26,364 nucleotides of DNA from an uncultured delta proteobacterium (GTDB lineage: Bacteria > Desulfobacterota > Syntrophobacteria > BM002): contig CAVQGX010000047.1 of NCBI GenBank assembly GCA_963712115.1, positions 1 through 26,364 on the forward strand, in the 5' to 3' direction. The notes beneath the pieces are model-generated. The model did no database searches, was not told the origin of the DNA, and saw only the letters and a list, made by a program, of their open reading frames with translations. Both the position numbers and the translations under genes were made by a program. This document shows positions 261 to 4,475 of this stretch, piece after piece (the first letter of the stretch is position 1; every line of letters starts with the position of its first letter).

Positions 261-1909
261 TCTTTCCCGATCGGTAGGCGGATGACAAATTTAGTACCTT
301 GGTCCTCGCTCGACTGGACCTCTATATTGCCGCCGTGCTCTTCTATAATCTTTTTGGTGACCGCCAAACCCAGCCCAGTTCCCTGACTTCCCTTAGTGCT
401 AAAGAAAACATCAAAGATCCGCTGGCGGATATGCTCGGGGATACCTGCGCCGTTATCATCAACTGTAATAAGAATTTCGCTCTCCCCTTGCTTCTGCGTA
501 CTGATCTTTACCTCACCTTCTTCTTCATCCAAGGCGTCAATTGCATTGGTGAGCAAGTTGAGTAAACAGCGGTGAATTCCTTGAGGATCCGCTAAGATGC
601 GCGGAAGCTTTGGGTCCAGGTCGAGCTGTAGCTTTCCGTGTTTTGTCATGATCCGATCATGACACAATTCCGCAGCTTCCTTGCAAACTCCGTTTATGTG
701 GCAGGGTTGAATATCTGGCTTCCTGTCCTTGGAATAAGCGAGCATGTCCAGCACCAGGTTGCTTATACGCTGATTGCTGCGCCGAAGAATTTTCCAGACT
801 CTGTTGATTATACTCAAATCCTCGGCTGCAAGTGCCTTCTCCACCATGTCATGGGAGGTGTCCATGGCAGCGACTATATTCTTGATATAGTGGGAGAGTC
901 CTGATATTGCCTGACCCATTGCAGCAAGTCGTTCATTTTGGATTTTGTCTTTGTAGAGCTGGGCATTTTCTACTGCGATGCCGGCAGCATTGCCGATGGC
1001 ATCCAGGAGCATAAGGTCTTCCTGGCTGAATGCACCCGCGCCGGTGGTGTCCACGTGAATGATACCGACAATCCGCTTACGCCCACGGAGCGGAGAACAC
1101 ATGGCCGAGCGTATTTGGTGAAGAACCACACTCTCGGCCATGCCAAACTTTGAGTCTGCCATGGCGTCGGCGATGAGCACTGATTCTTTTTTTTCCAGAA
1201 CGTGTGAGATGATGTTTTGGCTAATGCTAACTTTGTGATCGAGACCTTCCTTGTTTTGCCAGCGTGAGGACTTGACTTCCAACTGATCCGTGTTGGGATC
1301 GATGAGAAGGACGAAGCCGCGTTCGGCCCGGACGGTTGCGAAAGTCTCGTCTAGAACCTTGTTGAGCAGCACATCCAGATCAAAAATAGAGCTGGCTAAG
1401 CGGGTTACCCGATACATGGCACCCAGACTGAGATGGCTGCGGCCCAGCAAGTCCATGAGCATGGAGGAACTTAGCGCCTGGGTGATGTTCATGACGGAGG
1501 CAGGCTCCGATTCAGAGGGCTGGAAAATCTGCTGAGCGTCGGGCTGGTGCAGGAGCGTAGGCTCATCCGCAGGTGGCACAGGTTGCGATAGTCTTTCCAC
1601 TTGATGAGTATAGTCAGTGGCAGGGCGCAGCAGGAGCTCAACTTTACCCAGAGTCAAGCGGTCGTCAACTTTTAACTCGCTGCTTCTTAATGGAACGCCG
1701 TTTACCAGAACACCATTTACACTATCGAGATCCTCAATAATGAGATTGTCACCATTAATAACAATCCTGGCATGTTGCCTCGAAAGCGTCCTATCGTCGA
1801 AATAGATCTGACAGCTCTGGTCGCGACCTATGATTACTTCTTCGTCCTTTAGCAAATAGATCTGACCTTCGTCCGGGCCTTTAATGACCAGCAACTCGTA
1901 GGCTGCCAT
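200..1909 (-). CDS. FHA-GAF sensor histidine kinase (FHA + GAF + HisKA + HATPase_c), cytoplasmic
   Basis: FHA motifs IGR..., LSRQHA and DLDSVNG. GAF segment IRSAMCSPL...VGIIHVD. H-box LSHYIKN, N-box NLLTNAIDA, G1 DDNGAGI, F-box IFDVFFSTK, G2 GTGLGL. No transmembrane helix is apparent. Confidence 0.93.
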   Translation of the reverse strand: MAAYELLVIKGPDEGQIYLLKDEEVIIGRDQSCQIYFDDRTLSRQHARIVINGDNLIIEDLDSVNGVLVNGVPLRSSELKVDDRLTLGKVELLLRPATDYTHQVERLSQPVPPADEPTLLHQPDAQQIFQPSESEPASVMNITQALSSSMLMDLLGRSHLSLGAMYRVTRLASSIFDLDVLLNKVLDETFATVRAERGFVLLIDPNTDQLEVKSSRWQNKEGLDHKVSISQNIISHVLEKKESVLIADAMADSKFGMAESVVLHQIRSAMCSPLRGRKRIVGIIHVDTTGAGAFSQEDLMLLDAIGNAAGIAVENAQLYKDKIQNERLAAMGQAISGLSHYIKNIVAAMDTSHDMVEKALAAEDLSIINRVWKILRRSNQRISNLVLDMLAYSKDRKPDIQPCHINGVCKEAAELCHDRIMTKHGKLQLDLDPKLPRILADPQGIHRCLLNLLTNAIDALDEEEGEVKISTQKQGESEILITVDDNGAGIPEHIRQRIFDVFFSTKGSQGTGLGLAVTKKIIEEHGGNIEVQSSEDQGTKFVIRLPIGKELSTKQEALSTEKRNSLDGA

Positions 1910-1964
1910 TGCTTATCCCTAATACTTTAAAATATCAACAAAAAAGAAAACTTGTTTCCTTGAG

Positions 1965-2060
1965 CGGATGTTTCATGAATCACCTACTGCAACCGCGGAT
2001 ATGGCCGTCCTTCCGGGCGTCCTCGGGTGTCGCACCTTGCGACGTACCGTTAGGTACGCC
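1965..2060. repeat. Truncated MITE/REP-like palindromic element (one end plus apical CGTAC-loop-GTACG hairpin)
   Basis: cggatgtttcatgaatc (1965-1981) is the exact reverse complement of 24166-24182. The segment ends in the hairpin acgtacc-gtta-ggtacgc, which resembles the apex of the 22182-22375 element. Confidence 0.6.
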
Positions 2061-2107
2061 AGAAGCTGAAATTGAGCTAACTAAGAGCAAGAACTGGGCC
2101 AAAGTTA

Positions 2108-2225
2108 GGAGTCAGTAGCCAGTAGTCAGAATCCAGGAGGCATAGGGCATAGGGAAAATAAAGCTGGCAGCTAGCAACTAGCAGCAGGCAGCTTTTTCAA
2201 CTAGGCACTGAGGAGTCAGAGGTCA
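2108..2225 (+). repeat. Mixed heptamer tandem repeats (AGTCAGT/AGCCAGT, GGCATAG, GCTAGCA, TCAGAGG)
   Basis: Read directly: agtcagtagccagtagtcag, ggcatagggcataggg, gctggcagctagcaactagcagcaggcagc and gtcagaggtca, the last abutting the IS. Confidence 0.75.
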
Positions 2226-2239
2226 CATATGAAAAGTGA

Positions 2240-2245
2240 AGTAAA
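2240..2245 (-). promoter_or_regulatory. Outward-facing -35 (TTTACT) of the predicted IS circle-junction promoter
   Basis: The circle junction would read TTTACT-tcacttttcatatgTGg-TTAAAT: a 17-nt spacer with TG-N before a weak -10 supplied by 3732-3737. Junction promoters are established for IS1111/IS110 elements. Confidence 0.5.
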
Positions 2246-2607
2246 GAAAAACTTATCCATTACCGTGAAATCGAGTTTTTGACTTCACAGGACGACCGTG
2301 AGCCTTGTTGGCCATGTGGGAGCAGACCATCACTTAACTTATGAAGTGTGCATACACAGTCGGGTGATCGGATCAACATGACAGTGCGGGCCGTGTTCTT
2401 TCCAGTCAGATATATGAGTCTGTTTTTCCTGAGAGGAAAATGACTAGGGTCACATTGGGTATAAAGGCCGGGGGCCTATCCAGAGGTCGAGCCTGTCGCC
2501 CCGAAGCATCGGGGGTGGCTAGACGTCTATTGATCGAGACTCACCCGGCAACCCGGATCCGCCGGACTGGTCTGCGCACTTCAGTCCAGTTAATGGTGCT
2601 GTCTCCT
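2246..2607 (-). ncRNA. Putative bridge RNA / seekRNA encoded in the IS 3' non-coding end (boundaries approximate)
   Basis: About 380 nt without a credible ORF, downstream of the transposase. Hairpins include CCCCGA-UGCU-UCGGGG, AGGCC-CCC-GGCCU and GUGAAGUC-N8-GAUUUCAC. It contains GACCUCUG (2488-2481), identical to left target plus core. Confidence 0.65.
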
Positions 2608-3660
2608 TTAGACAACGTTCATCTGTGGCGAATCCAGGAACAGTTCAGGCCTATAGGCATCTCCTCTTTTCCACATGCCGTACATGACGGCAATGATCTT
2701 TCGCTGGGTATTGAGTCTGGCATGGACATGGCTTAGAGTCTGCCGCAAGGAGCGTGAGTAAAACTTTCTAACCTCGTTATCGCCTCCCATGGCACCAAGC
2801 CATGCTCGATAGCTCAAGGCTTTGAGTTCTGAGACACCGGATCTGTCCAGCCGTTTAAATCCCAGCGGTTTACCGTCGCTGGAGCGATCGGTGATCCCTA
2901 AGCGGCAATAGCGCCAGAGTTTACGCTTATGAGCAAAGCGGTGGGGAGTTTGAATGAAGGCATCGAAAATATGGGAAAGAATCTCCCCTATGCCAGGCAT
3001 CTTTTCGAATTCTTTGATCTCAGGATATTTACGCCCGAGTTGCTTCATTGCCTTAAGAGCTCTTTTTTGCATGGACTCGGTTTCATCCATTAGACAATAG
3101 AGACGATGAAGTTGATTACGAATATGAAGATGCTTCACCCTTTGCAGATAATCATCACGGCTGGTGCCATAGACGGCTTGGCCTGTTACCTCAATAACAC
3201 CCCAGTGACGGTACATAGCTTTAATCTTGTTCTTCAACACCACCTGCTGATCGCGAAGATCTATATAGTGTTGAACCGCCGACTTAAATATGGCGCGGTC
3301 ATCATTTTCAGCATGATAAACCCGGTTCAACTCCCCCAGTCTAAGAAGACGGCACAACTTGTGGGTATCAACCTTATCTCTCTTGTTGGCACTGCGGTAG
3401 ATCAAGGCGTTCTCCCTGGGATCAGAGGAGATGACTTCGGTTACATAGGGTCTGGCCACCTGGGCAGCCCAATAGGCAAGGTTACTTTCTTCCAGTGCCA
3501 GATACTTCTCCTTTGCTTTAACAGCTTTGAGGGCCTGGATAATGTGTCGCTCGGATGTGGGAAATCTTCTGTTTCCAATAAAAGTTCCATCAAAATCCAT
3601 GTGGCCGAGAACACAGTGACCTGCATGTACATCTATAGCCAGATATGCTACCTTTTTCAT
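2608..3660 (-). CDS. IS110-family transposase / bridge recombinase (DEDD_Tnp_IS110 + Transposase_20)
   Basis: RuvC-like DEDD motifs LAIDVH, ALEES and KRDKVD. C-terminal MPGIG...(YCRLG)...RSSDGK carries the candidate catalytic Ser. Intact 350-aa ORF. Confidence 0.95.
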   Translation of the reverse strand: MKKVAYLAIDVHAGHCVLGHMDFDGTFIGNRRFPTSERHIIQALKAVKAKEKYLALEESNLAYWAAQVARPYVTEVISSDPRENALIYRSANKRDKVDTHKLCRLLRLGELNRVYHAENDDRAIFKSAVQHYIDLRDQQVVLKNKIKAMYRHWGVIEVTGQAVYGTSRDDYLQRVKHLHIRNQLHRLYCLMDETESMQKRALKAMKQLGRKYPEIKEFEKMPGIGEILSHIFDAFIQTPHRFAHKRKLWRYCRLGITDRSSDGKPLGFKRLDRSGVSELKALSYRAWLGAMGGDNEVRKFYSRSLRQTLSHVHARLNTQRKIIAVMYGMWKRGDAYRPELFLDSPQMNVV

Positions 3661-3740
3661 TGGACGACCTACTTTGTGGTGTGTTTTGGTTTTTCGGTAA
3701 TTCCTTTATACACCACGGTCGTCCGTTTTTCATTTAACCA

Positions 3741-3836
3741 GAGGTCAAAATTTCAAATTTCGAAATTATACCATTACGGTTTGAACGAATCCGGCGGAGC
3801 CGGATGATAGAACGATTTGAACGACTTGAACGAACT
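3741..3836. repeat. Host repeat tract flanking the IS: GAGGTCA/AAATTTC heptamers followed by TTGAACGAN nonamers
   Basis: gaggtcaaaatttcaaatttcgaaatt, then tttgaacgaat...atagaacgatttgaacgacttgaacgaac. Confidence 0.6.
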
Positions 3837-3842
3837 GGGACC

Positions 3843-4475
3843 TCATCTCACAAATGGGTTGTATTGCTTCTCCTTGCCTATAGTGGACTGGGGCGAAGTG
3901 CCGTAATTGTGTCCCGGAAAGACCAGAGTGTCATCGGGCAGGGTTAGGAGTTTGGTCTTAATAGACAGAATGAGTTGGGGCATGGAGCCGCCTGGAAGGT
4001 CGGTACGTCCGATTCCGCCAACGAATAGGGTATCACCGGTAAACACATAACCATTGGTATAGAGAGACATCCCTCCAGGAGTGTGGCCTGGTGTATGAAT
4101 AACCTCGAGGAATTGCTTGCCGAATTCGATCCGATCACCTTCCTCGACGGTTATGTCTGGGGGAGGTGATGCTTCGCACTGAAAAATCTGTAGGGCTAGA
4201 GATGAAGGATTAGCCAGTCTTTCAGCGTCATCTTTGTGGATCACAATCTGAGCTTTGGTTCTCTCTTTCATGTCCCTGTTGCCCCCTGCATGATCGGCAT
4301 GGCAGTGGGTGTTGACAATGTATTTGATCTTGTCAATTTTCCTGTTCGCTGCGACATCCAAAAGAAGTCCCACCTGATCTGCTGGATCGATGACGATTCC
4401 CTCACCGGTTTCCGGACAACCAACTACATAAGCAAAAACCGCAAAGTTACCCACTTGTATTTGTTCAATAATCAT
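3843..4475 (-). CDS. MBL-fold metallo-hydrolase (glyoxalase II-like, YcbL/GloC-like)
   Basis: Motifs THCHADH, HTPGHTPGG, FTGDTLF and PGH. Start moved to the ATG at 4475 (MIIEQIQVG), which follows GGAGGAG. Confidence 0.92.
   Translation of the reverse strand: MIIEQIQVGNFAVFAYVVGCPETGEGIVIDPADQVGLLLDVAANRKIDKIKYIVNTHCHADHAGGNRDMKERTKAQIVIHKDDAERLANPSSLALQIFQCEASPPPDITVEEGDRIEFGKQFLEVIHTPGHTPGGMSLYTNGYVFTGDTLFVGGIGRTDLPGGSMPQLILSIKTKLLTLPDDTLVFPGHNYGTSPQSTIGKEKQYNPFVR

Follow-up and report, generated by a model that had tools for sequence, protein, structure and literature searches.

We examined a stretch of 26,364 nucleotides from an uncultured delta proteobacterium of the Desulfobacterota (contig CAVQGX010000047.1; the whole stretch is called the window below) and found that its positions 2226–3738, read on the minus strand, very probably constitute an RNA-guided insertion sequence. 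As judged from its sequence, the element would belong to the IS110 superfamily with IS1111-like organisation: the predicted guide RNA is encoded downstream of the recombinase gene, and its predicted targets are TCAGAGG heptamer arrays of the host. In the orientation of the element, the left end (3738–3661) is followed by a 350-amino-acid open reading frame (ORF; 3660–2608) and then by the right end (2607–2226). The mechanism is already known (bridge RNA or seekRNA, 2024); what is new is that the subfamily is divergent, that short tandem repeats serve as targets and that the target guides are almost complementary to one another.

Guide segments vary with their targets

The evidence that carries this reading comes from comparing the element with its relatives. 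A protein search found 1423 relatives at E ≤ 1e-10, most with 70–93% identity and mainly on short metagenome contigs. An order-level protein search found three relatives, and a search at E 1e-40 through 400 genomes from the phylum returned nothing beyond the window's own genome. Scans yielded 32 loci from species genomes, where Desulfobacterota metagenome-assembled genomes had 88–91% identity and other phyla less than 66%, together with 80 of at least 466 metagenome loci. The analysed set holds the 94 loci with at least 60% protein identity (60–94%), the three copies in the window's genome included; 81 of these have a left junction, 73 a complete right end and 64 both. Loci below 60% protein identity (part of L038–L062) were left out of the guide analysis. 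Guides were read by alignment column and compared with shuffled guide/target pairings, a null that ignores relatedness among the elements; 39–43 distinct guide sequences lie behind the shuffle tests.

Alignment of the right ends revealed two similar modules, each consisting of a variable segment, UAG(C/U)C, a hairpin, G(G/A)CUC and another variable segment. Consensus folding and pair counts place a target-binding stem-loop at 2467–2549 (minus strand), with a basal stem, an internal loop, an inner stem AGCC/GGCU and a hairpin. An earlier note, made from the letters of this DNA, had pointed out that an 8-mer in this part of the right end is identical to the left target plus the core dinucleotide. 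We found that 8-mer, GACCUCUG in RNA sense, at window positions 2488–2481 (2481–2488, minus strand); it equals six nucleotides of left flank plus the core and would pair with the bottom strand. The chance of such a match in about 380 nucleotides had been put at about 0.6%, which agrees with 380/65536 on one strand. The weight of the guide claim lies on covariation, not on this single match. Across 51 unique guide/target pairs (62 loci), the left target guide agreed with the flank at 232 of 306 non-core positions, a score that not one of 10,000 shuffles attained (125.7 ± 8.0, maximum 158). Agreement rose towards the core, with matches at positions −6 to −1 in 19, 32, 39, 45, 48 and 49 of the 51 pairs, and at the two core positions in 51 and 50. 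The six elements that have a CG core carry CG in the guide and at both junctions.

The right target guide showed the same dependence. In the window it reads AGACGUC (2522–2528, minus strand) and is complementary to the G of the core plus positions 1–6 of the right flank. The earlier note had placed a right-guide segment 5′ of the stem; we found AGACGUCU at 2528–2521, with the AGCC/GGCU stem and its inner hairpin lying between the two guide segments. Among 61 unique pairs (72 loci), 297 of 366 positions formed Watson–Crick pairs, as against 175.5 ± 8.0 in shuffles, with 0 of 10,000 reaching the observed count. Thus both segments covary with the target in homologues, the check that had been proposed for them. 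In the RNA, the right target guide (2528–2522, the top-strand complement) stands 5′ of the left target guide (2488–2481, the bottom-strand complement), and the two overlap at the core. In the window's genome, the first loop is predicted from these pairings to specify GACCTC-TG-AC(C/T)TCT, which corresponds to two adjacent units of a TCAGAGG array.

A donor loop and a conserved fold

The earlier note did not contain a donor loop. We found a donor-binding loop that changes with the element's own right end. This stem-loop (2402–2458, minus strand), placed by the consensus fold and pair counts, has a basal stem CCA/UGG, an internal loop, an inner stem AGUC/GACU and a hairpin with many compensatory changes. 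Its left donor guide, AUAUCUG in the window (2407–2413, minus strand), equals in the family the last five nucleotides of the right end plus the core. The match is 7/7 in 56 of 73 loci, and in 13 unique pairs there are 83 identities out of 91, compared with 68.8 ± 2.7 in shuffles (0 of 10,000 reach it). The guide follows the ATG, GTG, ACG and GCG variants of the right end as well as the TG or CG core; for the GTA and ATA variants, the difference is compatible with G–T wobble. A candidate right donor guide, ACCC (2447–2450, minus strand), faces the G of the core and the bases with which the left end begins; it was assigned by position and by analogy with the target loop.

To obtain the fold we ran RNAalifold on 52 right ends, one per distinct guide pair, with the two most divergent (L034 and L055) removed. 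The consensus predicts a bridge/seek RNA core of about 240 nucleotides (2343–2582, minus strand), in which outer stems surround the two adjacent stem-loops. In the resulting 62-pair structure, 92.6% of cells are paired, as against 27–52% after sliding the partners by 1–3 columns. Double changes occur in 27 pairs, compared with 13.8 ± 1.9 in shuffles (0 of 500 reach it), and the hairpin of the second loop alone contributes five pairs with double changes. These results support the prediction that the non-coding right end encodes an RNA with target-binding and donor-binding loops.

One alternative is that the recombinase protein picks the target by itself, and that the 8-mer match arose in the right end by chance or because the element copied flank sequence. 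A single 8-mer match with a chance of about 0.6%, in an element whose right end matches its own right flank imperfectly, could be read in this way. It would leave unexplained why three segments covary, respectively, with the left flank, the right flank and the donor end over 39–43 guide sequences, each beyond all 10,000 shuffles, and why these segments occupy fixed places in a fold backed by compensatory changes. We regard this alternative as very improbable.

Copies in the genome sit in heptamer arrays

The host genome comprises 70 contigs (4.9 Mb) and holds three full copies of the element with 99–100% identity, namely that in the window, L002 (1513 bp) and L003 (1516 bp), together with an internal fragment, L004, and a derivative that has lost the recombinase gene, L005. 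L004 (G000 C30:230902-231910) is identical in sequence to window positions 2308–3316, lacks both ends and the first 114 codons, and has heptamer arrays nearby. In L005 (G000 C30:24570-25181; about 0.6 kb), a complete right end, guide RNA included, is joined by about 100 bp that are unrelated and by a left end that has diverged: it is 78% identical and has one base fewer between core and repeat. L005, too, is inserted in a heptamer array.

All four copies that have junctions (the window copy, L002, L003 and L005) sit in TCAGAGG-type heptamer arrays, which is what the earlier note had expected of the flanks of other copies. Together with the covariation, this supports its proposal that the guide is programmed against TCAGAGG heptamers. 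On the plus strand, the flank on the right-end side ends in GAGGTCA in the window and in L002, in GAAGTCA in L003 and in GGAGTCA in L005; read further out, it is TCAGAGGTCA in the window and L002, CAGAAGTCA in L003 and CAGGAGTCA in L005. The flank on the left-end side starts with CAGAGGTCA in all four. Beyond about 10 bp the flanks are unrelated between copies, which indicates that the insertions were independent. Similarity among the genome's copies stops at window positions 2216 and 3747, that is, 10 and 9 bp past the element, and we attribute this overshoot to a shared target sequence rather than to a longer element.

The same overshoot could suggest that the copies arose by duplication of a larger host segment, flanks included, so that the heptamer flanks were inherited rather than chosen. 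However, the copies share no long flanks, their flanks being unrelated past 9–10 bp; the sequences adjoining the right end differ, as listed above; and, in other metagenomes, the flanks of relatives are different and fit the relatives' own guides. An origin by segmental duplication seems to us scarcely credible.

The boundaries follow from comparing the copies within the genome and from the junction positions in 64 relatives. The element (1513 bp) ends just inside both copies of the core, with the junctions set 5 nucleotides beyond the left repeat and 3 nucleotides beyond the right repeat. The core reads CA on the plus strand, TG in the orientation of the element, at 2224–2225 (right-end junction) and at 3739–3740 (left-end junction, also read directly from the sequence). 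The same dinucleotide stands at both junctions in 62 of 64 relatives (56 TG and 6 CG), and there is no other duplication. On the plus strand, the host array flank TCAGAGGTCA at 2216–2225 represents right target plus core, and CAGAGGTCA at 3739–3747 represents core plus left target.

The two ends proposed previously, 78 bp on the left and roughly 380 bp on the right, were read as 78 bp (3661–3738) and 382 bp (2226–2607), both on the minus strand. Besides the subterminal repeat, the left end has a hairpin adjoining the ribosome-binding site and supplies the −10 box of a putative junction promoter; the right end is non-coding in alignments of 73 and 52 right ends and is predicted to encode the guide RNA. 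We also confirmed the subterminal inverted repeats, ATGAAAA at 2229–2235, which is conserved across the family, and TTTTCAT at 3726–3732 (both on the plus strand); they lie 3 and 5 nucleotides from the duplicated CA and would be 10 bp apart in a circle. To this we add that, with no more than 7 bp, the subterminal repeat stands at the bottom of the 7–17 bp range quoted for the IS1111 group in PMC11208160, and that a second inverted repeat lies further inside.

This second repeat, GGACGACCGTG, is a perfect 11-bp inverted repeat that joins 2290–2300 with 3714–3724. It lies 65 nucleotides inside the right end and 14 nucleotides inside the left end, and is invariant in the family. Its right-end arm is part of a conserved hairpin at 2263–2300 (minus strand), which was recognised from a helix in the consensus fold and from the inverted-repeat comparison. 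Positions 3717–3724 of the left-end arm also pair with GGACGACC (3662–3669), just upstream of the start codon, in a hairpin around the ribosome-binding site.

A divergent recombinase

The recombinase gene (2608–3660, minus strand) encodes 350 amino acids with a DEDD RuvC-like domain and a C-terminal Ser domain, as judged from Pfam, from an alignment of 16 relatives and from an alignment with IS621. The ORF exceeds the cut-offs of Pfam PF01548 (DEDD_Tnp_IS110; 38.3 bits, cut-off 29) and PF02371 (Transposase_20; 33.4 bits, cut-off 21.3), in agreement with the intact DEDD/Ser recombinase described earlier. D10, E57/E58, D95, D98 and S261 are unchanged among the 16 relatives. The C-terminal half aligns (E 8.5e-7) with the IS621 transposase of known structure, 8wt6, and S261 falls on the S of the SG pair in that protein; the roles of these residues in the DEDD/Ser scheme are presumed, on the basis of a weak HMMER alignment to IS621. 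The region of the GL-P----S(t)G motif reads LGITDRSSDG, in which the Ser is kept and the P and the G after the Ser are absent from the aligned positions.

As in the IS1111 group, the longer non-coding region (382 versus 78 bp) and both RNA loops lie downstream of the recombinase gene. The label "IS1111-type" given by the earlier note draws on this organisation; the recombinase is far from annotated IS110-family proteins. We take the recombinase, from its sequence matches, to represent a divergent branch of the IS110 superfamily.

Several observations weigh against an RNA-guided element of this kind, besides the relatedness that our null ignores. Some concern the protein and its family. The recombinase scored 82 bits against NCBIfam NF033542 (IS110 family RNA-guided transposase), below the cut-off of 140; the match spans residues 6–333, that is, the whole length, which argues for a divergent branch rather than a partial protein. 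A tblastn search of 72,556 plasmids returned only IS110-family genes with at most 22.9% identity. Classical elements of the IS1111 group are common on plasmids of that kind, and because the plasmid matches were distant IS110-family genes only, membership of the recombinase in the classical IS1111 cluster is doubtful. No Rfam family matched window positions 1900–4100 at E values up to 1.

Other points concern the guides. The right target guide needs two registers one base apart, with 42 pairs favouring one, 17 the other and 2 tied, and it fits poorly in L065, L033, L090 and L097, where 2–3 of 6 positions pair. The window's own right target guide faces its flank with a C–C mismatch, and its left donor guide departs from the right end of the same copy by a change that is not a wobble (C for G); no other allele of this kind occurs in the 73 loci. 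For the right donor guide we found no consistent covariation with the core or the left end. This segment, ACC(A/C), is nearly invariant, and it lacks support from covariation because it hardly varies: it reads ACCG in one CG-core element (L108), ACCA in the five others and ACGG in L126.

The remaining points concern direct traces of RNA and movement. We observed no RNA or RNA end, no circle junction and no base-precise empty site. Two metatranscriptome libraries yielded contigs that span 2323–2565 and 2215–2693 at ≥90% identity; these come from relatives, and contigs are not proof of transcription. The assembled contigs of four sequencing runs included none joining across 2226–3738 and no circle junction, a result that is uninformative either way, as contigs drop rare forms. 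The sole hint of an empty site is the end of another contig (G000 C46:1-79), which carries the exact left flank of the window (2150–2225) through CA and then GAG instead of the element. It agrees with an empty site over three nucleotides only and may have entered the assembly from an unoccupied allele present in the population. On the supporting side, in three related species (L150, L151 and L152) the element is absent from the interval between the kinase gene and the metallo-β-lactamase (MBL)-fold hydrolase gene; no base-precise empty site could be read from these three orthologous loci, their heptamer arrays being different.

Target guides that nearly pair with each other

The earlier note had reasoned that a tandem target would make the two target guides nearly complementary to each other. 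Consistent with this, the minimum-energy fold of the window RNA closes the loop with 6 of 7 pairs. With an 8-nucleotide left guide facing a 7-nucleotide right guide, full pairing between the guides implies a target that repeats with a period of 7. Among 52 sequences of the family, two positions of the loop are paired in 45 and 49 cases and show 8 and 14 double changes, respectively. Guide–guide pairing averages about 4 of 7 positions, reaching 6 of 7 in five sequences and 7 of 7 in none. We then reconstructed the restored targets of 60 distinct loci and compared each with itself at different offsets. Self-identity was 0.414 at lag 7 (15 loci at ≥0.6) and 0.346 at lag 8 (7 loci at ≥0.6), compared with 0.21–0.30 at lags 3–6 and 9–11. 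Because self-identity is raised at lags 7 and 8, a good part of the clade, beyond the window copy, appears to land in short tandem repeats. Some lineages use sites free of repeats, such as the CG-core group.

We tentatively consider a wider interpretation, to which we give a minor share of belief: that the whole recombinase clade (60–94% identity, hundreds of metagenome copies) is specialised on 7- and 8-bp tandem repeats, with lineages reprogrammed for each repeat unit. The self-closing loop might then act as a gate for target DNA, with one mismatch kept to avoid a dead closed helix.

The literature text that we searched, which did not include the supplementary tables of targets in two 2024 papers that may hold such cases, describes no IS110/IS1111 element with short tandem repeats as its target. 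Nor did the literature searched contain an earlier description of a near self-complementary target loop as a design constraint of bridge RNAs.

Two guide alleles

The window copy and L002 differ at three of 1513 positions: 3118, a silent change in the gene; 2525, in the right target guide; and 2409, in the left donor guide. The earlier note can thus be supplemented, since the right target guide and the left donor guide of the window are each one base off those of L002 and L003. The pair AGACGUC and AUAUCUG is common to the window copy, L004 and L005, and the pair AGAAGUC and AUAUGUG to L002 and L003. The latter pair fits better: AGAAGUC pairs perfectly with the L003 flank ACTTCT, and AUAUGUG matches the right end. 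That two of the three differences fall within about 27 guide positions of 1513 is striking, but this is a post hoc observation, and we cannot tell selection from chance.

One possible explanation is that the window copy is a crippled guide variant of the RNA-guided type, which moves only with RNA of the L002/L003 type or no longer moves. Its donor guide is AUAUCUG where its own right end requires AUAUGUG, the mismatch that stands alone among 73 loci; AGACGUC is a perfect match to none of the four right flanks; and the metagenome run covering the largest part of the stretch shows only the alternative letters in its contigs at 2409 and 2525. However, the two-base allele pair occurs at three separate places (the window, L004 and L005), which indicates that this lineage spread after the changes arose, and the window ORF is intact, with a protein identical to that of the other copies. 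Single guide mismatches are tolerated at some positions in IS621. We think it possible, if rather unlikely, that the window copy is crippled in this sense; the window-type allele perhaps spread with RNA supplied by the other type.

Proposed mechanism and relation to known systems

By extension of the mechanism published for IS621 and for IS1111-family seekRNA elements, the element would excise as a circle. The circle junction would bring a right-end −35 box and a left-end −10 box together at a spacing of 17 nucleotides, and could drive both recombinase and RNA. A complex of recombinase and RNA would then pair its donor loop with the circle junction and its target loop with a site in a heptamer array, and strands would be exchanged at the TG core. 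At the junction as reconstructed, the two boxes are separated by a 17-nucleotide spacer. Of 64 loci, 28 have TTGACT as the −35 box and 37 have TAATAT as the −10 box; the window copy has TTTACT and TTAAAT, respectively. Within the integrated element we found no sigma-70-like promoter, with 1.8 expected by chance. In IS621 the promoter is likewise split across the circle junction.

The closest described counterparts are the IS1111-family seekRNA elements. Siddiquee et al. 2024 (PMC11187229) reported seekRNAs of 82–96 nucleotides from the downstream non-coding region of four IS1111-family elements. In these RNAs the top-strand complement precedes the bottom-strand complement in the 5′ to 3′ direction, with an overlap of the two at the target. 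The window element resembles these elements (ISEc11, ISPa11, ISKpn4 and ISPst6) in a DEDD recombinase of 330–350 amino acids, subterminal inverted repeats, a long downstream non-coding region, the order of the guides with their overlap at the target, and repeated host sequences as targets. Unlike them, it has a recombinase below the NCBIfam cut-off, a Ser followed by D rather than G and a subterminal repeat of the minimum 7 bp. Its target and donor loops are both plain internal loops within one enclosing stem, and its target is a short tandem repeat, not a repetitive extragenic palindromic (REP) sequence, an attC site or a transposon end.

Durrant et al. 2024 predicted a right-end bridge RNA for 93.0% of IS1111 elements and noted that IS110-family elements often target repeated elements such as REP (PMC11208160). 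IS621, whose bridge RNA is also the subject of Hiraizumi et al. 2024 (PMC11208158), shares with the window element a dinucleotide core, insertion into repeated intergenic elements and an RNA with two loops, in each of which the left guide reproduces flank and core and the right guide is complementary to core and flank. It differs in carrying the RNA in the left end, upstream of the gene, in the reversed order of the guides and in its REP targets. Only the C-terminal half of the recombinase aligns significantly with that of IS621, at the E value of 8.5e-7 given above. ISPpu9 of Pseudomonas putida (PMC12288879) is an IS110-family element inserted in host repeats; a small-RNA gene follows its transposase gene, and further copies of this RNA gene occur elsewhere in the genome. 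L005 is comparable by description; in contrast to the window element, ISPpu9 targets a REP sequence.

RNA-guided IS110/IS1111 recombinases are under development as programmable tools for DNA insertion. In the family described here, nature has set about 40 different target-guide pairs and several donor-guide variants on one closely related protein scaffold, each with a known insertion site. Such a series would be useful in establishing the rules of specificity and of mismatch tolerance for an IS1111-like system, a type less studied than IS621. It also links two things that are usually treated apart, as the abundant heptamer arrays of these sediment Desulfobacterota would be landing pads for a mobile element, and landing in arrays would explain how the element multiplies without hitting genes.

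Host repeats around the element

We searched the genome for short tandem arrays with a lag test in 28-nucleotide windows, requiring at least 80% self-match, and found 269 arrays of period 7, compared with 1, 4, 74 and 45 of periods 5, 6, 8 and 9. There are many unit classes; the commonest dominant unit, ACCTCTG (= TCAGAGG), accounts for 25 of the 269 period-7 arrays. The sequence GACCTCTG is present 381 times, both strands counted, and the 14-mer GACCTCTGAC[CT]TCT at 55 sites, so that unoccupied sites far exceed the four occupied ones. In the window, Tandem Repeats Finder reported period-7 arrays flanking the element on both sides. Since the heptamer arrays are intergenic and numerous, they provide the element with dozens of probably harmless landing sites.

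Five other, distant IS110-family ORFs of the genome (G000 C41:2575-3240, C48:13128-13793, C54:12429-12764, C42:17285-17809 and C36:18596-19129) match the family profile with E values of 2e-11 to 1e-4. None has a period-7 array within 1.5 kb, and they therefore do not count as siblings that share the element's insertion habit.

Short arrays with periods of 7 and 14, and a 9-bp unit at 3810–3833, make up almost all of the intergenic region (1910–2225 and 3741–3842) that separates the FHA/GAF histidine-kinase gene from the MBL-fold hydrolase gene. The composition of this region is wholly different between related species (L150, L151 and L152), and the flanking genes are 84–93% identical. The same region contains a repeat of about 96 bp at 1965–2060 that has 124 blastn matches throughout the genome (84–92% identity). 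Metagenome contigs are heaped on it, the bin 1961–2047 standing at 3188 and 6132 compared with tens elsewhere. The repeat is missing from the orthologous locus in G007 and inverted in that of G005, and it looks like an element of the miniature inverted-repeat transposable element (MITE) or REP type.

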